Assembly (NCBI GenBank): GCA_963677975.1
Contig: OY782677.1
Location: 643,178-707,177 of the forward strand
DNA from: Bacteroidales bacterium
Lineage (GTDB): Bacteria > Bacteroidota > Bacteroidia > Bacteroidales > UBA4417
DNA length: 64,000 nucleotides
Direction: 5' to 3'
The position numbers and the translations under genes are program-made. Shown one piece after another: positions 38,456 to 50,255 of the stretch; within the stretch, counting starts at the first letter, position 1; each line of letters opens with the position of its first letter. Under the pieces are notes generated by a model, which did no database searches, was not told the DNA's origin, and worked only from the letters and a program-made list of their open reading frames with translations.

Positions 38456-40600
38456 TCATCGCAGAAGCAATACCATGCCTCTTTCGGTGTTTATTTCATC
38501 GCCCCTGAGCGATGTCCTGTAAGTGGATTTAAACGAATACTCCCCTGCCGGGCAATCCTTCCCGTTGAAGGTTCCATCCCATCCTTCGGCGGCATTGTCC
38601 GATGTAAATATAAGCTGTCCCCAGCGGTTATAAATCAGTATACTGGCATTATATACATTATGCATTACAGGCCTGAAGCGGTCATTTTTCGAATCCCCGT
38701 TTGGTGAAAACACGTTCGGGAAAAAGATAGTCCCTTTGCAGCCGGGATCATCCTTTAGAATAAGGGATGCGGTATCGGAATTATTACATCCGGAAACTGA
38801 GGTGAAGTCGTAAATAATGGTATGCAGCCCGGCAGGTTCCAGGTAGGGATAAAGGCTATCAGCTAGAGTGCCGTTCACATAATAAGTTCCACCGGCGGGT
38901 TGCCCCCCGGTAAGAGCGAAACCGGGCTCGGTAAAGCACATGTCGGGGTAATCGGCCAGGGAAACAACCGGAAGAGGTTCGATACTGATATTTATCGAAG
39001 TGGTGGGGCCATTACCGCAGGTAATATTATGCCCGGTAGCCGATAACTGGCCCGCGGTAGCATCAACCCTGAAACTTAATGTTGCCGTATTGCCCGAAGT
39101 TGTTATACTAACCCCGGTTCCGGAATAGGACCAGATGTAGCTTGTCGAATTCGGGTCGGCCGATACTGTATACGACTCATTGCCAATGCCTTTACAGTGA
39201 TTACCAATGCCAGTGATCACAGGTAATGCGGGAATTTTTTTTGAAATAAAAACAGTACCAGGGATTTCGGACCAGGAAACAAACCACCAGGAATTTATAG
39301 TATTATTATTGCCAAAGTCGTTACTCCAGGTATGACATCCACCTGGATTGATGCATCCGGTTGTGGTGTTCGATGAACCACCCGCTATTTGCGAATCGTC
39401 CCAGTAAATCCTCATTTGTCCGCCTTTAGGCCGCACCTGGCTGACAATATAGCCATCGTAGTTGTTTTCGATATCATGGATCGGCAGGTGGGTCATCCCA
39501 CTGAGGTTGGCAATTGTATATGATAGTGTGGTGCCGTTGGGAACTGCCTTCCCGAAGTTATCGTTTCCGTCCCAGGTAAGGATATTATACCCATTTCCGC
39601 CGGGGTTGGCTTTCACGTTGGCAATAATCTGAACATCTTCGGCATCGGCGCCGGGTGAAGGATTAATCTCGATTACGAGTTTTATCGCCCCGTCTTTTAC
39701 TACTTTAATGCCAAATTCAGCGCCGCCGGTTACACAATTTGTTGTAACAACAATAGGCAGGATAATTGCCGATGTGATTTTCTGGGTGGGAAATACAAGG
39801 CTGTCGGGATCGTTAAGGAATACCTTGTATTGAGGGTAAGTATGAAACCCGGGCCTCGACATGCGGTCATTCACTATGTTCCCCGTTGTTGAACATCCCG
39901 TTATATTACTCGAAAACGAAAAAGTCCCGCCCATATAACCGTTACAATCAACCTGTGTTACAATGCTGTCGTCCGACAGGATCATCATTTTACCATAATA
40001 CCTTTCGCTGGTCGATGTGGGGTCGCCACTCCAGAATTGCCACGCTTTCGACCACACCCTCCCGTTTTTGGCATTGCCTGCTGCATCCACTACCGTGATA
40101 TCAAAATAAGTGAGCAAGTGCCGGTTGTTTTCATCGTAAATGCCCGAAGGGGTGGCCGGGTAGAAAAATTCAAGGTAAAAATCACCCGTTGTTATGGGTT
40201 TATATTCAAGGTAATTGTAGCCCCCGGCAAATGGCCCTGCAATTGCCTCAGCGTAAGTATTAATATACCCTGAGCCTGAGGATGGTACCGGGAATGGGCC
40301 ATAAACAGTATTCCCGCCGGGATCTTTAATACGATAAACCAAATCCGTTGTGTATGTTCCCAGCACCTGGCCGAATCCAAATCTGACCGTTTCAGATGAT
40401 TTCGAGACAGTAAAATTTAACCTGAACTCCTGCGAAGCGTTATAAAAAGCAAAATCGTTCCGAGCTTTATTGATGCATAGCTGCCCTTTTGCGTTTGTAA
40501 CCAGCGGTATTACCTGCTTTGTGCCTTCGGAATACGCAATTATTCCCGGAAATACAACCAGAAACAGTATTATACGTAAGCTTTTACGAATTCCTGCCAT
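38456..40600 (-). CDS. T9SS type B (gliding-motility-associated CHU_C) C-terminal domain protein with a PKD-like domain
   Basis: C-terminal FFPNVFSPNGDSKNDRFRPV...IYNRWGQLIF...GWDGTFNGKDCPAGEY. The ATG at 40600 is preferred because a -7 box at 40618..40625 overlaps the longer start. Confidence 0.85.
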   Translation of the reverse strand: MAGIRKSLRIILFLVVFPGIIAYSEGTKQVIPLVTNAKGQLCINKARNDFAFYNASQEFRLNFTVSKSSETVRFGFGQVLGTYTTDLVYRIKDPGGNTVYGPFPVPSSGSGYINTYAEAIAGPFAGGYNYLEYKPITTGDFYLEFFYPATPSGIYDENNRHLLTYFDITVVDAAGNAKNGRVWSKAWQFWSGDPTSTSERYYGKMMILSDDSIVTQVDCNGYMGGTFSFSSNITGCSTTGNIVNDRMSRPGFHTYPQYKVFLNDPDSLVFPTQKITSAIILPIVVTTNCVTGGAEFGIKVVKDGAIKLVIEINPSPGADAEDVQIIANVKANPGGNGYNILTWDGNDNFGKAVPNGTTLSYTIANLSGMTHLPIHDIENNYDGYIVSQVRPKGGQMRIYWDDSQIAGGSSNTTTGCINPGGCHTWSNDFGNNNTINSWWFVSWSEIPGTVFISKKIPALPVITGIGNHCKGIGNESYTVSADPNSTSYIWSYSGTGVSITTSGNTATLSFRVDATAGQLSATGHNITCGNGPTTSINISIEPLPVVSLADYPDMCFTEPGFALTGGQPAGGTYYVNGTLADSLYPYLEPAGLHTIIYDFTSVSGCNNSDTASLILKDDPGCKGTIFFPNVFSPNGDSKNDRFRPVMHNVYNASILIYNRWGQLIFTSDNAAEGWDGTFNGKDCPAGEYSFKSTYRTSLRGDEINTERGMVLLLR

Positions 40601-40617
40601 AACACTATAAAGCATAG

Positions 40618-40812: not shown

Positions 40813-42480
40813 CTATTTATACCCTTCGTTATGCACACTTTTTACGGCCCGTCCCGAAGGATCATTCTGGTTACTGAACGATGCATCCCATGCTAATGCT
40901 TCAGGAGTGCTGCATGCCACCGAAGGAACTGAGGGCACGCATTGTGCAGCAGTATCCGAAGGAAAATGGTCGGCAAAAATCGTACGGTAATAATACTCCT
41001 CTTTTACCCTGGGTGGATTTACCGGGAAGCGGTATTTTGCATTTGCCAGCTGTTCGTCAGTTACCTGTGATGAGGTAAGTTCTTTAAGTGTATCGATCCA
41101 GCTATATCCTACTCCATCCGAGAACTGTTCTTTCTGGCGCCAGGCAATGCTTGCAGGCAGATAGTCCTCAAACGCTTTCCGCAATATCCATTTTTCCATT
41201 TTCCCGTCTTTTGCCATTTTATCCTCCGGGTTCAGCCTCATGGCAACATCCATAAATTCTTTGTCGAGGAACGGGACACGTCCTTCTACACCCCATGCGG
41301 CCAGCGACTTATTCGCTCTCAGGCAGTCGTAAAGATGGAGTTTTGATAATTTCCTCACGGTTTCCTCGTGAAAAGCCTGGGCATTAGGTGCTTTATGGAA
41401 GTACAGGTAACCGCCGAATATTTCGTCGGCACCTTCGCCCGAAAGCACCATTTTTATCCCCATTGATTTTATTACCCTGGCCATCAGGTACATGGGTGTC
41501 GAAGCGCGTATGGTGGTTACATCGTAGGTTTCGAGATGGTAAACCACATCGCGCAAGGCATCTAATGCTTCCTGAATGGTAAATTCAATTTCGTGGTGCA
41601 CCGAACCTATATGATCAGCTACCACTTTTGCCGCTGCCAGGTCGGGCGAGCCTTTCAGCCCTACAGCGAAAGAATGAAGCTGCGGCCACCAGGCTTCCTG
41701 CAGGTCGTGCGATTCGATGCGGCGGGCAGCATATTTTTTGGCTATTGCTGAAATAACCGACGAATCAAGTCCACCCGAAAGTAAAACCCCGTAAGGCACA
41801 TCCGACATCATCTGCCGGTGAACGGCCTCTTCAAGAGCTGTTTGCAGTTCATGGATTCTGGATTTGTTATCTTTCACATTCGCATAATCCGACCAGTCGC
41901 GTGTGTACCATTTGCGTATTTCACCTTCCTTGCTGTAGAGGTAATGGCCGGGCAAAAACTCCTCGATACGGTTGCAGGTTCCTTCGAGTGCCTTCAGTTC
42001 GGATGAAACATAAAAATTACCGAATTTGTCCCAGCCCATATAAAGAGGGATAACGCCAATATGGTCGCGGGCAATCAGGTAGCAATCGTTTTCGGAATCA
42101 TACAGGGCAAAAGCGAATATCCCACTGAGGTCTTCGATGAAACTGATGCCTTTCTCCCTGTAAAGCGCAAGTATTACTTCACAGTCGGAATGGGTAAGAA
42201 ACTCATAGTTCTGAGCCAGGTTTTTGCGGATATCCATATGGTTGTAGATCTCGCCGTTTATTGAAAGGATCAGTTTCCCGTCTTTACTTTTCAGCGGCTG
42301 TCCTCCCGATTGGGGATCGACAATCGAAAGCCGCTCATGAGCCAGGATGGCTTTTTCGCCGCAGTAAATGCCTGACCAGTCCGGCCCGCGGTGCCGTATC
42401 TTTTTCGACATCTCGAGTACCTGCACCCGCAGATCCTGCGATGCCGTTTTCAATTCAAAAACTCCTACAATTCCACACAT
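40813..42480 (-). CDS. asnB: Asparagine synthase B (glutamine-hydrolysing)
   Basis: MCGIVGVF Ntn-Cys start, SGGLDSS PP-loop and a 555-aa length. Confidence 0.95.
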   Translation of the reverse strand: MCGIVGVFELKTASQDLRVQVLEMSKKIRHRGPDWSGIYCGEKAILAHERLSIVDPQSGGQPLKSKDGKLILSINGEIYNHMDIRKNLAQNYEFLTHSDCEVILALYREKGISFIEDLSGIFAFALYDSENDCYLIARDHIGVIPLYMGWDKFGNFYVSSELKALEGTCNRIEEFLPGHYLYSKEGEIRKWYTRDWSDYANVKDNKSRIHELQTALEEAVHRQMMSDVPYGVLLSGGLDSSVISAIAKKYAARRIESHDLQEAWWPQLHSFAVGLKGSPDLAAAKVVADHIGSVHHEIEFTIQEALDALRDVVYHLETYDVTTIRASTPMYLMARVIKSMGIKMVLSGEGADEIFGGYLYFHKAPNAQAFHEETVRKLSKLHLYDCLRANKSLAAWGVEGRVPFLDKEFMDVAMRLNPEDKMAKDGKMEKWILRKAFEDYLPASIAWRQKEQFSDGVGYSWIDTLKELTSSQVTDEQLANAKYRFPVNPPRVKEEYYYRTIFADHFPSDTAAQCVPSVPSVACSTPEALAWDASFSNQNDPSGRAVKSVHNEGYK

Positions 42481-42528
42481 AACATTTCATTTTTAAGTTA
42501 AACACAATCCCGGAACTGACTAACGGGG

Positions 42529-42560
42529 AATAAAAAAGGCCTCCCTGATCGGAAAGCCTT
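42529..42560 (-). terminator. Terminator-like hairpin inside the asnB 5' leader (putative attenuator)
   Basis: The minus strand reads AAGGCTTTCC-GATCA-GGGAGGCCTT (10 bp with 2 G-U pairs) followed by TTTTATT, about 47 nt before the asnB ATG. No upstream gene on this strand needs a terminator here. Confidence 0.45.
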
Positions 42561-42592
42561 ACCTATGATTTTTCAAACACAATACAGCTTTC

Positions 42593-42643
42593 CTAATCCG
42601 ACAGGGGATTATAATTAAAAACCGAATTATTGGTTGTGAACAT
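42593..42643 (-). CDS. Putative 16-codon Asn-rich leader peptide MFTTNNSVFNYNPLSD
   Basis: ATG TTC ACA ACC AAT AAT TCG GTT TTT AAT TAT AAT CCC CTG TCG GAT TAG. Four of the 16 codons are AAT. The stop overlaps GGAAAGC, which is complementary to part of the terminator's 5' arm. Confidence 0.35.
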   Translation of the reverse strand: MFTTNNSVFNYNPLSD

Positions 42644-42667
42644 TTCGTTGATATGTATTGATTACGG

Positions 42668-42675
42668 CAAAGGTA
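42668..42675 (-). promoter_or_regulatory. -7 box (TACCTTTG) for the asnB leader
   Basis: TAnnTTTG 24 nt upstream of the leader ORF ATG. Confidence 0.35.
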
Positions 42676-42774
42676 GTTAAAATATATTCAGGTATTTGGA
42701 TGTGTTGCATTTTTTGATAATTAAAATCTGCCATCCTGCATATCTTTATATCTTCGCATTTCAAAAAATGAACT

Positions 42775-44163
42775 ATGCATAAAATTTTCAGTCTATTAGT
42801 ATTACTATTTCTGGTCCTTGTTTTTAAGCTTCAGGCACAAGTTCAGTCCGCGGAAACAGCATTTGCAATTCCTGATCAAACAGCAGCCGTCGATAAAACA
42901 GAAATGGCTAAAAAAGTTAAAGCCGAATTCCTTCATGCCTGGAACGGGTATAAAAAATATGCCTGGGGATACGATGCCCTGCAACCCCTGAGCTTAAAAC
43001 CCCATAATTGGCACAAAACATCACTCCTGATGACACCCGTCGATGCATTCGACACAATGATACTTATGGGCCTTACCAAAGAAGCTGATGATGCTAAAAA
43101 ACTCATTTTCGAAAAACTTGATTTTAATCTGGATATGGAGGTTCAGAATTTTGAAGTCTCCATCCGTATCTTTGGCGGGCTGCTATCAGCCTACGAACTC
43201 GATGGCGACCGCCGGTTCCTTTCCCTGGCTGAGGATCTTGGGATAAGGTTGATGAAGGCTTTTAAATCGCCTACCGGCATGCCTTACCGTTTTGTAAACC
43301 TGAAAACCGGTGCTACCTCCGGGCCCGTTTCGAATCCTGCCGAAATAGGCACATACCTGGTTGAATATGGCACACTCAGCAAACATACCGGAAACCCGGT
43401 ATATTACGAAACTGCTATGAAAGCCATGATAGCGCTTTATAAACTCCGGTCTCCTCTAGACCTTACAGCCGAAGGGATCAATGTGGAAACACGCGTGGTT
43501 ACCAACCCGGAAAGTCATATTTCGGGTTGTATCGATTCGTACCTCGAATATATGCTCAAAGGCTCTATCCTGTTCAACGATACACAACTTGCTGAGATGT
43601 GGGCACCAACTATTACTGCGGTTAATAGTTATCTTGCCGATACAGTTAACGGAAGTTTGTGGTACGGACACTCTGATATGTATACAGGCAAACGGAGTGC
43701 AACGGATTATGGTTCACTCGATGCTTTTTTTGCAGGTACCCTTGCCATGAACAACGACCTGGAGCATGCTGCAGCCCTTCAGAAATCGAATTACCGCATG
43801 TGGATGCTCAATGGTATTGAACCGGAATCTATGAACTACAAAACCATGACAGTCGAAAACGGGCAATATATCCTCAGGCCGGAGAATTTCGAAGGAGCAT
43901 ATTACCTCTACCAGTATACCAACGATCCCCAATACCTCGAAATGGGCAAAGCCATGTTCGATAACCTTGTGAAATACTGCCGCACTGACGAAGCGTATGC
44001 TGCTATCAAAGATGTGCGCACGATGGAAAAAAAGGATTATATGGAAAGTTTTTTCTTCGCCGAAACGCTTAAATATGCCTATTTGCTTTTCGACGAATCA
44101 GGTAAGCTCAATTTCCATAAAGTCATATTCAATACCGAGGCGCATCCGTACACGAGGAATTAG
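42775..44163 (+). CDS. Glycoside hydrolase family 47 (class I alpha-1,2-mannosidase-like), secreted
   Basis: Signal peptide; EVSIRIFGGLLSAYEL and ESFFFAETLKYAYLLF match hallmark GH47 segments. Confidence 0.8.
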   Translation: MHKIFSLLVLLFLVLVFKLQAQVQSAETAFAIPDQTAAVDKTEMAKKVKAEFLHAWNGYKKYAWGYDALQPLSLKPHNWHKTSLLMTPVDAFDTMILMGLTKEADDAKKLIFEKLDFNLDMEVQNFEVSIRIFGGLLSAYELDGDRRFLSLAEDLGIRLMKAFKSPTGMPYRFVNLKTGATSGPVSNPAEIGTYLVEYGTLSKHTGNPVYYETAMKAMIALYKLRSPLDLTAEGINVETRVVTNPESHISGCIDSYLEYMLKGSILFNDTQLAEMWAPTITAVNSYLADTVNGSLWYGHSDMYTGKRSATDYGSLDAFFAGTLAMNNDLEHAAALQKSNYRMWMLNGIEPESMNYKTMTVENGQYILRPENFEGAYYLYQYTNDPQYLEMGKAMFDNLVKYCRTDEAYAAIKDVRTMEKKDYMESFFFAETLKYAYLLFDESGKLNFHKVIFNTEAHPYTRN

Positions 44164-44210: not shown

Positions 44211-47200
44211 TTAATCAAGTGAATAAATTATTTTTACCTGTTTCATTTCATTATTTCCATACATAAGTGGCAGGTACATCGGCTCGGCTTTGGCGGGGTT
44301 TAGATGAAAAATGCCTACATATCTTGGTAGCAAATCAAATTTAAAGGTGTATTTCCCGATAAAAAGGTGGTCAAGATAAATATTAACCTGGTTTTTGTAA
44401 TATTCACGATGGGCCTCGCTGTAAGAAGCCTTGGTTTTTTCATTATAAGAACAGCCGGCAGGAATCGGCACCTGTAACATTATGTAGTCAGCATCTTTCT
44501 TAACATGCACGGTAATCGAGCAGGTTACTTTTTTACCCGCAACCAGAATACCCGGTTTTTGATCAGTAGTGAAAGAGGTGGAGATTTCAAAAAAATCAGT
44601 TTTTGCTTTCGGATTCTCGTCCCTCAGGGTTTGATATGTGCTTATATAAACCGGCCCCGTTCCTGTTTTTCGAATGGTAAACCGCGCCGAAGGAGAAATT
44701 TTCAACTTAGTGGGAAATGTGCTGATTGTTTGGTTGATATCACCGGCTAACTGTATTTTGGGTTTGTTATACTCATTCATGGTTATATCTGGCAATAATG
44801 TCTCGATAGTATTTGTCGACTCATAAGTATTGCGCCACGATCCGGTATGCCTGATTTCGAAAAAATAGTTGCGGATACGCCACAACATATCCTTGTATAA
44901 TCCTGAACTCCTGATGATCCGATAAGCAGAAAGCGTTGCCGCTGTTGAATTGCTGCAGATATGATAATAGCTATCCCTGACCGGTATAAACGTATTTCCA
45001 TAGAGTGTTGTATCAAATGATCTTACCAGGCTATCAATATTAACTGGTATTCCCATCTTCTGTCGTAGTTCGAGAATCATCATTTTTTCCGTTATAGTAT
45101 GGCTTTTCTTCCGTTCAAGATTTTGAATTACTTCGGCCAGGCCTACATAATCTGGAATAGCTGATAACAATTGGGCTATAATAAATGAATCATAGTGTAA
45201 AGTATCCGTTGAATTATAGACTAAATACTGTGAAAATTTTAGCTTGTCGAATTCTACTTTGTATCCTGCCTTTTCAGCCGAGCTGAAGGCTTCAATCACG
45301 TGTTTCGACATCCAGAGTGATGTTGGCCCTTTTCCCCACCAGCCCCACATACCATCCTCGTTCTGGTTTTGCCTGAGCAGGTAAATAAGTTTATTGATTT
45401 CCTTATCATTATCGAAGATTTCGCCTTTATATTCCAGCAAGTACTTCCTGAACAGAAGAGCCTTTAGTTTTGAGGCCATTTGCTCATTGCAGTTATAAAT
45501 ATAGGTTACAACTTTTTCTGTTTCATCGAGAAGCACATCTAATTCGCTTATATCGAAGCTGATTGTAACACTGTCAGTTCCTGATTCGAAAACAGGTGCA
45601 GCAACCATTGTGTCGGATTGAAGATAGAAGAACTGCCCTTTATTCACTTCAGACCCCTTGGGAATGATTTCGAGATTGCGTGATTCACCATCGAAATACC
45701 CGTCATCGGAGAGAAAGGAATAGGTGATATTTACTGAATCATGGTCTTGTGCAACAAAGGGTAATGTGTCGATAACAACGTCGGTAAAAGATTGTGTATG
45801 TGTGAACAACGTATCGCTGTTAACTTTTAGCTGCGACCTGCCTTTAACAGTTCCGGTATTATAATTGATAACTTTTCCGAGTGCCTTAACACTGTCGCCG
45901 GCAACCAGAAACCGAGGCATGGCGATCTGTGCCGAAAGGGGCTTAAAAGCTTTCACGGAACCGTTCGTCTGGCCTGTTTTTCGCTTGTCGGTAATTGCGA
46001 TAACCGAAGTTTGCCAGTTTGTAATATCATCGGGGAACCGGACTTTAAAACTGACCTTACCCAGTTTATCAGTTCGTAACTGCGGTTGCCAGAAAGCGTA
46101 ATCGGAGAAATTACTACGGAGCGAAGTTGCATTTTTTGCCGCTTCCATAAACTCATCGGTGATTTCGATTCCTTTTGAAGATTTGGCAAAACCTGTATTG
46201 GTTGTTACCAGTATAGCGCCATTAGAAGCTTTTTCGCCAAACCGGGCTACTGCCATCTCGCCCGATATTTCTTCAGTATGATGAATCGATGATTTATCGA
46301 AATCACTCCAGTTACCATAAAACACAATTCCATCTACTATAATAAGCTTCTGATTGGCCTTTACGGTAGCTCCGGGTTCATTGGTTGTAACCTGTATGCC
46401 CGCAACTCTGGCAGTCATGCCTGACATCATATTGTCCTGAGCATACTCCATTTCCTGGCTGGATACCGTTGCTGACGAAACACCATGTTCCCGAGCTTGT
46501 CGGGTGATCCCATAAGCAGTTACCACAACTCCTTCTATTGAAACTGCACTTGGGCTCAGATAAAAATCGATATTGTCATATTCACCAACTTCCACTTCTT
46601 GCATTTTCATACCTACGAAACTGACCTGAAGAACAGGTTTTATTAATGAGATTTTCAATCGAAACTTACCATCTATATCGGTTAAAGTGCCATTTGAAGT
46701 ACCTTTCAATAATACAGTTGCACCAGGTATGGGTCCTTTGTCTTCTGAATCGCGAACAATTCCTGTGATGTACCTTCCGTCACCTTCGAATTCCATGAAA
46801 GCACTATAAGAGCGCTGTAATGCAACATAATCTTTTTGTGTAACCGAATTAAAGAACACATTGACAAATTTGTCGCGGTAAATTATTTCACATAACTTCT
46901 GGCTTAAGGAATCCCGCGGATGGATTTGTGCGGTTTGTATTGAGTTCAGCACCTTCGTTTGTCCTTCCCGGACCTCAACAGAGTCTGATTTAATATATTG
47001 GCATCCAGGAAATATAGTGATAATATCATAGTAGCCTTTTTCAAGATTGATGTACGTTGATGCCCTGCATATTATTGAAAATCTGGGTTCTCCTCTTCGG
47101 AAAACAATGTGAAAAAGAGGGGTGAGATTAGAGCCAGATCCAATCGGCGATTTTAATAAGATAACCTTACCGGTACTCCCCCATGAAGCATAGGGTTCAG

Positions 47201-50123
47201 CTAGTCCCGGGGAGTTATCAGCAATCTTTTTCAGTTTGAGTGTCTCCCATATGTCAAAGATGACTTTCTCAGTAAGCACACTATCAGCGAGTGTGATATC
47301 TCTTGTGGTTGAGAAGTCGAGATGGGGTTGAGCTTTTTTCTCCTGAGTCCGCATTTTTATCAAGCCGGGTGCGAAATCATACTCAAACCCGGGCTCAAAT
47401 ACCGTTTTTGTTCCCCAGGAACCCGTTTGTTTAAATTCAAATTCTTCAGCACGCAACGGACCGGCAAAATCGGATTTTACGAATCGCCCCTGGATGAAAT
47501 TATTCTGCAGGAAAACATTATCGTGTTGTTTAATATATGCGAAGCCATCGGAGAAATTATTCCTTACCGGCATAATATAACTCATCAGGTATTTTTCCTC
47601 GTCTTCGGAATATTTGCCTTTTTCCGCTCCTTTGATGTATACATTGGAGAGTTGTGCGTCGTCACTCACACTGAATACCGTTTTATATCCCGATTTGAAG
47701 GTAACATTACGGATCATTATTTTTTTTGTTGATGTCCGAATCATGATTGTATGCAGGCCCGGACTTACTGCAAAAGAATATGGTGAAAATCCCGGTTTGG
47801 AATTAGCAATATAAACTGGCCTTTGGTCGACATATACTGCCTGGATAGGTTCAAAATAACCGTCATGGGTTATAAAAGGGGAAAACTGAGTAATGCCTTC
47901 CACCGTTGGAATGGTGTAACTGAAAATGCTGTCGGGTGGATAAGCAAGGCGATAAAATCGGGTAGTATCAAGTTTAAGTGGCTTTATCCAGTTGTTGAAT
48001 AGCTCCGGATGGTTGGAATAGATTCCTTTGAATTCAACATTGTTTAGGGTAAAAGTGTTTATCAGCCGACGAGCATGCTTCTTTTCACGTATGAAATCTC
48101 CAATATCTGGTAATGGTTTGTTAAATTTTGCTGTATAGGCTAGTGCAGTTACATCTGCATCAGGAACCGGTTTTCCCCTGGCATCCTCAACCGAAATTTG
48201 TATTTGGGTTTCCTGTCCTGGAATTACAATACCGGGTTGTTCCACCTTAACCAGGAGGTGATTCTTCCTGTAAGGGATACTGTATTCAGCATTCTGCACC
48301 TTACCGGCCCAAATGTATTGTAATGAGAGGTAGTAATTTTTTTTATCCTTATACCGCTGTTTGTAATCAAACTCCCTGTCGTATCCCCGCTGAATCTGTT
48401 TGTTGTTTCTGTAAAGGTAGTAGGTAAACGGAAGGTATTGTGGGTTAAAAACACGTAAAGAGATTTTCCCCTTTTCACGGCTCGAAGAACAGAAAATCTC
48501 AGCATCCTCATCTTCCATATCGATTACTTTCTCTATCTGGCCCACCTCAACTGCTATCGAATTTATTAAAGGGTCGATATGCATCGTTACCGGTAATACT
48601 ACTCTCCGGTTATAAACCAGGTTGCCAAAACCATCTATCCCTTTTATTACGCCACTTGCCCACTCCAGTCGCCCATCGATCATATAGGCAAGTGTAATGG
48701 AATCGTCTTGAGTAGTCGAGGTAATTTCTGTAACGCGATGTTTAAAAGGAACTAAGATGACTTTTTCTTTTGTGTCGAAATCAGCGGTCTGCATTATCAT
48801 TTTAACGGAGTAACTCATGCTTTCGGCACTGAAAATGGAATCCGGGATTTCGATTTCTGTTTCACCTGATGCTAAAAGGGGGATTTTTTTATTGAGTAAG
48901 GTATCCGGAATAAAAACCCAATCTCCGCGAATTTCATTAAAGCTTTTTGGCGTTATAATTAGCCGTAAGGAGGCATCGGGAAGGTTGAGCCCATTTTCAT
49001 CGGTTCCTTTTACAAACAACCTGAAAGGAACACCCGCAATATGGTTTGCAGATGGTTGCCTCACTTCGAGATTCGATTTCCTTAACTCATAATCTTCTAG
49101 TTTGAAACTCCCTGAAATAATAGGGTAACGATTTTCCGCAAAACTGAGCCTGTACTCTTTATCAATTTTCAGATTCAGTGATTTATTGAGAATTAACTCA
49201 TAGCTATACCCTCCGGGTCGGTACGGACTGACTGTTCCTAATAATTTCTCTTCGTTATCATGCCAGTTTCCGATACGTACAATCAAAGGTTTATCAATCA
49301 GTTTTGTATCTTCACCCGTGATGAATGCTTTACATCGAACCGTATCGCCGGGCCTGTAAACAGGTTTGTTAAAAACCATTAACCCGTCTTCTTCATATCT
49401 GTTACGATTAATAGAATTAAATATCCTGCTGAAGCAATACCTGAAATAGTTATATGATTTGTTGTAACTGTAAGGGACAATAAGCTGTTTTACTCCGTCA
49501 AAAGGTAGCCGGATAACATTGTACAAGGGGAGGATCACATACCTCAGAGGAGTTCCGTAAACCAATGTTCGACGCCCTCTTTTAAAGGTTGAATTATCCC
49601 GGCCTCTTGTGAGTTCGACATATTGAGTGTGTCCAAGCCAGCTTACTGTGAGCATTCCCTTTTTGTTTGCCTTCGGGATACGGTATAACCGGGCTTTTGT
49701 ATCGAAACCGATGATTCTGTTATTGATTCTTACCGATGCGTCAGATACTGTATTCCCGCATAAATCAACCACTTCAATACATAAATCGGCACTGTTATTT
49801 TTAATGTTAACTATACAGTTATTCACCGTATAAGGTTCTATTACCAGATCGGTTTCCTTAAGATAAACTTTCAGATAATGTCCGGCTTCTAATGAATTTG
49901 TATAATTGCCGTACGTCGGAAATGAATCGATAAGTGTGTGAAAATCAGTTTCCGCGAAGTTAATGTATTCAGTATTCTTGTGTTTCCAGTAACGGGATGC
50001 TTCCTTTTCACTTATCTTAAAAATATAAGTATAAGGCGAAATCTGTATTGGTTTAGCACTATTTTGTGATAGCGAATAAAACGGGAATGCCAGGAACAGA
50101 ATAACAGATAACAGATTCTTCAT
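44211..50123 (-). CDS. Giant alpha-2-macroglobulin family protein with an internal CarboxypepD_reg + TonB-Plug-like module
   Basis: MKNLLSVILFLAFPFYSLSQ signal at the ATG at 50123 (the ORF extends to 50174); GIVRDSEDKGPIPGATVLLKGTSNGTLTDIDGKF plus a Plug-like segment; the A2M signature FWQPQLRTDKLGKVSFKVRFPDDITNWQ...PRFLVAGD; a thioester-domain-like YNCNEQ (45480..45491) and QNEDGMWGWW. Confidence 0.85.
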   Translation of the reverse strand: MKNLLSVILFLAFPFYSLSQNSAKPIQISPYTYIFKISEKEASRYWKHKNTEYINFAETDFHTLIDSFPTYGNYTNSLEAGHYLKVYLKETDLVIEPYTVNNCIVNIKNNSADLCIEVVDLCGNTVSDASVRINNRIIGFDTKARLYRIPKANKKGMLTVSWLGHTQYVELTRGRDNSTFKRGRRTLVYGTPLRYVILPLYNVIRLPFDGVKQLIVPYSYNKSYNYFRYCFSRIFNSINRNRYEEDGLMVFNKPVYRPGDTVRCKAFITGEDTKLIDKPLIVRIGNWHDNEEKLLGTVSPYRPGGYSYELILNKSLNLKIDKEYRLSFAENRYPIISGSFKLEDYELRKSNLEVRQPSANHIAGVPFRLFVKGTDENGLNLPDASLRLIITPKSFNEIRGDWVFIPDTLLNKKIPLLASGETEIEIPDSIFSAESMSYSVKMIMQTADFDTKEKVILVPFKHRVTEITSTTQDDSITLAYMIDGRLEWASGVIKGIDGFGNLVYNRRVVLPVTMHIDPLINSIAVEVGQIEKVIDMEDEDAEIFCSSSREKGKISLRVFNPQYLPFTYYLYRNNKQIQRGYDREFDYKQRYKDKKNYYLSLQYIWAGKVQNAEYSIPYRKNHLLVKVEQPGIVIPGQETQIQISVEDARGKPVPDADVTALAYTAKFNKPLPDIGDFIREKKHARRLINTFTLNNVEFKGIYSNHPELFNNWIKPLKLDTTRFYRLAYPPDSIFSYTIPTVEGITQFSPFITHDGYFEPIQAVYVDQRPVYIANSKPGFSPYSFAVSPGLHTIMIRTSTKKIMIRNVTFKSGYKTVFSVSDDAQLSNVYIKGAEKGKYSEDEEKYLMSYIMPVRNNFSDGFAYIKQHDNVFLQNNFIQGRFVKSDFAGPLRAEEFEFKQTGSWGTKTVFEPGFEYDFAPGLIKMRTQEKKAQPHLDFSTTRDITLADSVLTEKVIFDIWETLKLKKIADNSPGLAEPYASWGSTGKVILLKSPIGSGSNLTPLFHIVFRRGEPRFSIICRASTYINLEKGYYDIITIFPGCQYIKSDSVEVREGQTKVLNSIQTAQIHPRDSLSQKLCEIIYRDKFVNVFFNSVTQKDYVALQRSYSAFMEFEGDGRYITGIVRDSEDKGPIPGATVLLKGTSNGTLTDIDGKFRLKISLIKPVLQVSFVGMKMQEVEVGEYDNIDFYLSPSAVSIEGVVVTAYGITRQAREHGVSSATVSSQEMEYAQDNMMSGMTARVAGIQVTTNEPGATVKANQKLIIVDGIVFYGNWSDFDKSSIHHTEEISGEMAVARFGEKASNGAILVTTNTGFAKSSKGIEITDEFMEAAKNATSLRSNFSDYAFWQPQLRTDKLGKVSFKVRFPDDITNWQTSVIAITDKRKTGQTNGSVKAFKPLSAQIAMPRFLVAGDSVKALGKVINYNTGTVKGRSQLKVNSDTLFTHTQSFTDVVIDTLPFVAQDHDSVNITYSFLSDDGYFDGESRNLEIIPKGSEVNKGQFFYLQSDTMVAAPVFESGTDSVTISFDISELDVLLDETEKVVTYIYNCNEQMASKLKALLFRKYLLEYKGEIFDNDKEINKLIYLLRQNQNEDGMWGWWGKGPTSLWMSKHVIEAFSSAEKAGYKVEFDKLKFSQYLVYNSTDTLHYDSFIIAQLLSAIPDYVGLAEVIQNLERKKSHTITEKMMILELRQKMGIPVNIDSLVRSFDTTLYGNTFIPVRDSYYHICSNSTAATLSAYRIIRSSGLYKDMLWRIRNYFFEIRHTGSWRNTYESTNTIETLLPDITMNEYNKPKIQLAGDINQTISTFPTKLKISPSARFTIRKTGTGPVYISTYQTLRDENPKAKTDFFEISTSFTTDQKPGILVAGKKVTCSITVHVKKDADYIMLQVPIPAGCSYNEKTKASYSEAHREYYKNQVNIYLDHLFIGKYTFKFDLLPRYVGIFHLNPAKAEPMYLPLMYGNNEMKQVKIIYSLD

Positions 50124-50255
50124 ATTCAAAGGAATATTGATGCAATATAGCAAAAAAGACAGCAAGAACGACAAAATCTTCTTGGGTATTCAATGTTGAA
50201 TGCTAAAGGAACATAAATCATTATGGGTAAAAATGTCTCTCAGCAATAAAATTGG

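Follow-up and report, generated by a model that had tools for sequence, protein, structure and literature searches.

A probable leader-peptide attenuator with clustered asparagine codons upstream of asnB in a Bacteroidales lineage

The contig OY782677.1 of a Bacteroidales bacterium (GenBank assembly GCA_963677975.1) has been analysed over a stretch of 64,000 nucleotides (positions 643,178 to 707,177 of the forward strand), which is referred to here as the window. On its minus strand the window carries asnB, a gene for the glutamine-hydrolysing asparagine synthase B, whose product of 555 amino acids reaches 937.5 bits against the equivalog model NF006949 of NCBIfam (cut-off 499). A gap of 294 nt separates this gene from a divergent neighbour, and within the gap, between a promoter box and the asnB start codon, lie a short open reading frame (ORF) with several Asn codons and a hairpin of the terminator type. 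The question raised by the locus is what such an arrangement does in front of a gene that makes asparagine. An earlier note on this DNA had proposed that the ORF encodes a leader peptide and that the hairpin is one of two mutually exclusive RNA structures between which a translating ribosome decides. The analysis described below leads to the same view, in that the leader is rather likely to be a ribosome-mediated (leader-peptide) transcription attenuator of asnB which reads the supply of charged tRNA-Asn.

Architecture of the asnB leader

The components on which the earlier note had relied are all found on the minus strand where it had placed them, namely the -7 box, the 16-codon ORF with four AAT codons and its TAG stop, and the asnB ATG. 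The heptamer GGAAAGC does overlap the stop codon and has a perfect complement, GCTTTCC, further downstream, while the 10-bp hairpin followed by TTTTATT ends 48 nt before asnB. This hairpin was also recovered independently by a terminator scan, which reported just one other terminator-like site in 4 kb. The upstream neighbour is divergent, as had been reported. Coordinates of these features are collected in Table 1.

Unconstrained and constrained folds divide the leader RNA into four segments that can form three helices: an anti-antiterminator (1:2), an antiterminator (2:3) and a terminator (3:4). Two refinements of the original description have emerged from these folds. The antiterminator comprises 8 bp, GGAAAGCU:GGCUUUCC, and can be extended by GAUU:GAUC into the terminator loop; furthermore, segment 2 has an upstream partner that the earlier note did not mention, with the 1:2 pairing in the window consisting of CGGUUUUU:GAAAGCUG plus an inner hairpin. 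Within this inner hairpin, which may serve as a pause hairpin, lie the last Asn codon, the Pro codon and two of the three bases of the stop. The antiterminator occupies the 5' arm of the terminator and is therefore mutually exclusive with the 3:4 helix, an arrangement present in all ten distinct complete leaders now available, the one in the window included. Across these ten leaders the helix energies range from -11 to -20 kcal/mol for 1:2, from -10.6 to -17.9 kcal/mol for 2:3 and from -13.4 to -18.2 kcal/mol for 3:4, values that fall within the range of classical attenuators. The spacing is equally characteristic, with the last Asn codon beginning 17 nt upstream of segment 2 and the last base of the stop codon being the first base of that segment.

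The antiterminator was compared with dinucleotide-preserving shuffles of the stretch from the stop codon to segment 3, using 1000 trials for each leader. In the window this helix reaches -17.9 kcal/mol, as opposed to -8.7 +/- 2.5 kcal/mol in the shuffled sequences, only 1 of 1000 being equal to it, and an equally good antiterminator occurs in 0-4 of 1000 shuffles for eight of the ten leaders. A pyrimidine-rich equivalent of segment 1 (GCUUUC, CUUUUC or UCUUCU) has been detected inside the ORF of every relative. The leaders fall into two subfamilies, with segment 1 reading GCUUUY or GGUUUUU in subfamily 1 and UCUUCU in subfamily 2, and segment 2 reading GGAAAGC and GGGAAGA, respectively. Both subfamilies retain all three pairings despite these differences, which, because the registers differ, have been taken as agreement at the level of helices rather than covariation of base pairs. 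Segment 3 contains an invariant GGCUUUC in all leaders, and variation in segment 4 is limited to A/G changes opposite U.

The effect of a ribosome on these structures was modelled by folding the ten leaders with a mask that extended from -15 to +12 relative to the A-site codon, and the decision point was represented by a transcript ended just before segment 4. When the mask was placed on any of the last Asn codons, the shortened transcript had the 2:3 helix in its minimum-energy structure in 10/10 leaders. Moving the mask to the stop codon hid segment 2 and left segment 3 unpaired, again in 10/10. The two expectations of the earlier note, that a stall at Asn frees segment 2 and that a ribosome at the stop masks it, thus hold for every leader under constrained folding. 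In the free full-length RNA the terminator is formed in all ten leaders and segment 2 is engaged in pairing of the 1:2 type, although in one of them (L166) its partner lies in the 5' untranslated region (5' UTR) rather than in the ORF. The outer 1:2 helix has no fixed alignment register between leaders and has been judged by per-sequence folding only.

The sequence of events suggested by this architecture is as follows. Transcription would start a few bases past the -7 box, and a ribosome would begin to translate the 16-codon ORF with RNA polymerase still at work on the leader. Given ample Asn-tRNA, the ribosome would reach the TAG and cover GGAAAGCU; after its release, segment 2 would pair again with segment 1. 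With segment 2 either masked or re-paired, segment 3 would be free to pair with segment 4, and transcription would be expected to terminate 48 nt before asnB. When Asn-tRNA is scarce, the ribosome would stall with an Asn codon in the A site and would cover segment 1 together with the inner hairpin's 5' arm. Segment 2, which begins 17 nt beyond the start of the last Asn codon, would stay exposed during this stall and could capture segment 3 as soon as it is made and before segment 4 appears, so that no terminator would form and polymerase would read through into asnB.

Table 1. Position of the leader elements and neighbouring genes in the window
Feature	Position	Strand	Basis and remarks
-7 promoter box TACCTTTG, Bacteroidota type, consensus TAnnTTTG	42668..42675	-	sequence; 24 nt 5' of leader ATG
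Leader ORF MFTTNNSVFNYNPLSD, 16 codons plus TAG	42593..42643	-	sequence; ATG at 42643, TAG 42595..42593
Four Asn (AAT) codons of the leader ORF	42631-29, 42628-26, 42616-14, 42610-08	-	sequence
Segment 1 CGGUUUUU, codons 7-9	42617..42624	-	minimum-free-energy folds; anti-antiterminator, pairs with segment 2 in ribosome-free RNA
Inner hairpin UAAUCC-CCUGUC-GGAUUA	42594..42611	-	folds; stacked under the 1:2 helix
Segment 2 GGAAAGCUG	42585..42593	-	first base is the G of the TAG stop; alternative partners segment 1 and segment 3
GGAAAGC (in segment 2)	42593..42587	-	exact complement of GCTTTCC, 42557..42551
Segment 3 AAGGCUUUCC	42551..42560	-	5' arm of terminator and 3' arm of antiterminator
Segment 4 GGGAGGCCUU	42536..42545	-	3' arm of terminator
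Terminator hairpin AAGGCTTTCC-GATCA-GGGAGGCCTT	42560..42536	-	10 pairs, two of them G-U
Terminator U-tract TTTTATT	42529..42535	-	48 nt 5' of asnB ATG
asnB	40813..42480	-	ATG at 42480
Divergent GH47-like gene	42775..44163	+	upstream neighbour
Gene for a 719-aa protein	38456..40615	-	downstream of asnB
1987-aa ORF	44211..50174	-	past the divergent gene

The surroundings of the locus can be described briefly. The 719-aa protein encoded downstream of asnB carries a T9SS type B sorting domain at its C-terminus (62 bits, cut-off 35), which is consistent with a Bacteroidota origin of the DNA, and a long ORF lies beyond the divergent gene.

Relatives of the leader and selection on its codons

Homologues of the leader were sought through the protein that it precedes. 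A scan with AsnB of 185,579 species genomes, one for each species, returned 80 loci across Bacteroidota, among which only two, L001 (AsnB 93% identical to that of the window) and L055 (83%), have a leader of this kind. In a metagenome scan, the AsnB relatives among the matches listed were at most 82% identical and none had the leader. A protein search gave about 29 AsnB proteins of at least 86% identity, and contigs were fetched for twelve listed proteins, ten of them at 87-92% identity and two at 83%. Together these sources yielded nine further distinct complete leaders and one partial copy, with AsnB identities of 83-93%. The partial copy, L162, is cut by the start of its contig, which falls within the leader, but retains segment 2 and the terminator. 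The earlier note had expected a conserved short Asn-rich ORF with its helices in related genomes, and this has been borne out: all ten complete leaders have an in-frame ORF that is 16-18 codons long and includes 4-7 Asn, a stop beside segment 2, a terminator and a -7 box. The predicted peptides of subfamily 1 are MFTTNNSVFNYNPLSD (window), MFNHNTLFNNYNPLAD (L001), MLNINTLFNNYNPVTG (L163), MIHNSNTAINNNPFMD (L166), MAIKTNNIAFNNNPLPD (L167), MMLTGNTAFNGNNNPFTD (L169) and MTNYSNSVFNNNPVAD (L170), and those of subfamily 2 are MYLLNNNNLFNYNPFQW (L055), MFIPNNNNLLFNNNPSMR (L171 and L172) and MFIHINNNLLFNNNPSMN (L173).

A TAnnTTTG box has been located 16-24 nt 5' of the leader ATG in each of the ten complete leaders; a conserved -33 TTTG element was looked for in the leaders and none was seen. 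The region upstream of the ATG is A-rich and no Shine-Dalgarno sequence is evident in the leader. Bacteroidota start translation without Shine-Dalgarno pairing, and A-rich bases 5' of the start codon are usual for their translation starts. The upstream neighbours vary from locus to locus, being a divergent GH47 gene, a divergent gene for a transglutaminase-like protein or genes on the same strand. The leader accompanies asnB whatever the upstream gene is, and it therefore belongs to asnB and is not the 3' end of a neighbour. Two leaders show further features downstream of the terminator. In L055, alone among the leaders, a second match to the -7 consensus (TAGGTTTG) lies between terminator and asnB, and this box, if active, would bypass the attenuator. 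In L167 an insertion of about 220 nt (L167:501-647) has been found at the same place, bounded by a perfect 22-nt inverted repeat (AGGCCCGTCCTTTAGGGCGGGT / ACCCGCCCTAAAGGACGGGCCT) and with a second, inner inverted repeat of 21 nt; it looks like a miniature mobile element, and owing to it the attenuator of L167 lies about 260 nt from asnB instead of the usual 50 nt or so.

Four Asn occur in 15 codons of the window ORF, where shuffles predict 0.73 (P=0.002). Over eight leaders, 40 of 124 codons specify Asn, with 4-6 in each ORF as against about one in shuffled sequences (P 0.0002-0.0024 for each sequence), and the ORFs of subfamily 2 reach seven. The two other reading frames of the eight leaders hold 0-1 Asn each, and the AsnB protein itself contains 3% Asn. 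Two Asn that flank Y or N before a Pro (N-x-N-P) are invariant, while the other two to four are found at shifting positions. The ATG and the AATCC anchor are 33, 36 or 39 nt apart, so that length changes occur in multiples of three. Both Asn codons are used, with 35 AAT and 5 AAC in the eight leaders, as compared with 7 AAT and 10 AAC in the asnB gene of the window. This bias could tune the sensitivity of stalling, or could follow from an A+T-rich leader and its pairing needs.

The third-position identity of identical asnB codons, which is 0.40-0.59 relative to the window, has served as a neutral yardstick for the leader. The -7 box (0.75-1.0), the stretch from NxNP to segment 2 within subfamily 1 (0.74-0.97) and the terminator (0.79-0.86) all exceed it, whereas the spacer between promoter and ATG (0.33-0.50) is unconstrained at the nucleotide level. 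The 5' half of the ORF, at 0.26-0.67, has diverged about as far as synonymous sites, and yet two to three Asn codons are always kept there. Retention of Asn amid diverged nucleotides is the pattern predicted by selection on codon identity, and not on RNA sequence alone.

These observations bear on a first alternative, in which the leader would be a translation-coupled attenuator without Asn specificity, responding to translation capacity or nucleotide supply in the manner of pyrBI, and the Asn codons would be incidental to an AAU-rich structure. The same helices and ORF also fit this explanation, the leader is A+T-rich, and in subfamily 2 the run AAC-AAU-AAU-AAU pairs with a downstream AUUUUGUUGUU, so that AAU runs do play a part in structure. 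Against this, the enrichment in Asn is confined to the frame of the ORF (4-6, against 0-1 in other frames and about one in shuffles), the Asn codons persist at shifting positions where the nucleotides have diverged to the level of synonymous sites, AAT/AAC exchanges occur, and the regulated gene makes asparagine, in keeping with the rule for amino-acid attenuators. An attenuator of this unspecific kind is regarded as improbable.

A second alternative is suggested by the peptide. The invariant N-x-N-P and the stop could mark an arrest peptide, similar to TnaC, that senses free asparagine, or the terminated leader could act in trans as a small RNA like rnTrpL. In subfamily 1, six of the seven ORFs end with D-stop and that of L163 with G-stop, and small RNAs derived from attenuators have been described. 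The conserved residues are, however, explained by the RNA, given that the inner hairpin has AAUCC as one arm and GGAUUAG as the other; subfamily 2 ends with W, R or N instead of D; and an intrinsic terminator with three-helix logic needs no arrest peptide. This explanation is considered very improbable, well below the preceding one, and the reading of the leader as an attenuator that responds to charged tRNA-Asn is retained.

Counter-evidence and comparison with known systems

Several results weigh against a ribosome-mediated Asn attenuator and have to be set beside the evidence presented above. The first concerns the compensatory changes that the earlier note had hoped to see in the helices of relatives. 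Default MAFFT misaligned the GGCTTTCC arm, and an N-padded block alignment was therefore used, which MAFFT returned free of gaps. In this structural alignment of eight leaders, 95% of cells are paired in the terminator and inner hairpin taken together (93.8% in the inner hairpin alone) and 91% in the antiterminator, but no pair has changed on both sides in any of the three, the only changes being U-A to U-G or lost pairs. As the sample is small and closely related, this is absence of evidence and not evidence against the helices; the structures therefore rest on conservation and shuffle statistics and not on covariation. The antiterminator does not clearly exceed shuffles in L167 (107/1000) and does so only moderately in L170 (30/1000). 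The ten leaders are related and represent two subfamilies only, so that the P values obtained for single sequences are not independent, and the AAU-rich runs of subfamily 2 join the 1:2 pairing, so that part of the Asn richness could be structural. In the folding experiments, the full-length RNA at equilibrium often favours the terminator even with a stalled ribosome, and the switch must therefore be kinetic; the switch of the trp attenuator is likewise kinetic. In the window and three relatives, 2:3 is favoured above the outer 1:2 helix in the shortened RNA even when no ribosome is present. Finally, the leader is absent from the close relatives L161 (AsnB 92%), L002 and L168 (both 88%) and L081 (82%), and from all of the other 150-odd Bacteroidota asnB loci examined. 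The element is thus dispensable and narrowly distributed.

Part of this counter-evidence favours a third alternative, in which the ORF is untranslated and the leader is a constitutive or factor-controlled terminator, or a structured 5' UTR, whose regulator, if it has one, would be a protein or a small RNA, with the alternative helices unused. Translation of the ORF is a prediction from its sequence, the helices lack covariation, some close relatives manage without the element, and Rfam holds no family for it. Nevertheless, the in-frame ATG and the stop abutting segment 2 are retained in 10/10 leaders, the length of the ORF changes by multiples of three, the ATG is preceded by A-rich sequence in the usual manner of Bacteroidota starts, the antiterminator is far better than in shuffles, and the window gave no score for a T-box, a riboswitch or any other known motif. 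A leader whose ORF is untranslated is held to be unlikely, on a par with the unspecific attenuator.

The whole 64-kb window had no match to Rfam 15 at gathering thresholds. Infernal aligned 42530..42638 (-) to Phe_leader (RF01859) with 28.2 bits and E=0.028, below the gathering score of 55, and a permissive search of 42000..43200 gave a sub-threshold match of 21.9 bits to the PyrR binding site; both reflect the generic shape of a leader followed by a terminator and not membership. No other leader family and no T-box matched at E<=10 in 42000..43200. The leader has each of the architectural features tested for in ribosome-mediated attenuators, and it is a member of no curated Rfam family.

To our knowledge, classical attenuation has been documented for few amino acids (Trp, His, Leu, Thr, Phe and Ile/Val), mostly in Proteobacteria. 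The leaders concerned (trpL, hisL, leuL, thrL, pheL and ilv) likewise have a short ORF rich in codons for the end product, 1:2, 2:3 and 3:4 helices of similar energies in which 3:4 is an intrinsic terminator, a stop just before segment 2, and regulatory codons about 17 nt before that segment. The asnB leader differs from them in its amino acid and gene, in the lack of sequence homology to Trp_leader, His_leader, Leu_leader, Thr_leader and Phe_leader, in its TAnnTTTG promoter, in having no evident Shine-Dalgarno sequence and in its restriction to a narrow uncultured clade. Within Bacteroidota, the Bacteroid-trp motif is found in front of trp genes and includes Trp codons, and would thus represent the same mechanism in the same phylum. 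This motif has no score in 42000..43200 even at E<=10, concerns another amino acid and operon, and shows no sequence relationship to the asnB leader. It has been presented under RF01692 as a candidate cis-regulatory leader in Bacteroidetes (Weinberg et al. 2010, PMC2864571).

Asparagine is monitored by other means elsewhere. The Asn-specific T-box leaders of Firmicutes follow the same logic, in that a leader terminator is read through when tRNA-Asn is uncharged. They control asparagine-related genes, and the T-box binds the uncharged tRNA directly, without translation. In the window no T-box match was obtained, and the sensing element would be the ORF. In Escherichia coli, the protein transcription factor AsnC acts at the asnA promoter, and asparagine represses this asparagine synthetase gene; such protein control at a promoter is distinct from the RNA- and ribosome-based mechanism proposed for the asnB leader. 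In the literature covered by full-text search, neither a leader peptide specific for Asn nor an attenuator of asnB came to light, and an earlier prediction may exist elsewhere. In the premature-terminator survey of Naville and Gautheret, the word asparagine is absent and the stem 'asn' has a single match.

Distribution and significance

The distribution of the leader is patchy even among close relatives. A search with an nhmmer profile of the leader covered the window and 170 loci; neither additional nor degenerate copies were detected, and the window gave a single copy. When 160 asnB upstream regions were scanned for a terminator combined with an ORF, no analogous Asn leader was seen in other Bacteroidota. 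At several of the loci without the leader, other sequences are found upstream of asnB. In L161 its place is taken by a tandem array (L161:591-651) of about four copies of the 14-nt unit TTCGGTCTTCCGAC, which can also be read with 7- or 21-nt periods and lies downstream of a RhuM-family gene. L002 and L168 have in common a different sequence, about 60-100 nt 5' of the asnB ATG, that ends in a long T-run, preceded in L168 by a weak hairpin (GGTTTATTCCCTGTTGGAAAACC TTTTTTT); no Asn-rich ORF occurs in this upstream sequence. Two Marinifilum loci (L004 and L005) share a hairpin with a T-run (GTCGTCAAATCCCCATTTGGCGAC TTTT), located 52 to 28 nt before the asnB ATG and without a leader ORF, which may constitute a different type of leader control on asnB.

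On balance it seems somewhat likelier than the opposite that the asnB leader is the first Asn-specific leader-peptide attenuator and represents a new family, one that arose, and has repeatedly been lost or displaced, within a single uncultured Bacteroidota lineage. To a specialist the mechanism itself is unsurprising; the clade that carries the leader is a narrow, uncultured one, and the claim comes from computation alone. If this history is true, asnB genes that are 88-93% identical in protein, with and without the leader, would provide a natural series for the birth, divergence and death of an attenuator, and the patchy occurrence of the leader among near-identical asnB genes would point to rapid gain and loss of such elements. 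Should the mechanism be confirmed, a compact and portable asparagine sensor of about 150 nt would be at hand for Bacteroidota genetics, Asn would join the short list of amino acids read by attenuation, and Bacteroidota would be seen to use coupled transcription and translation for gene control.

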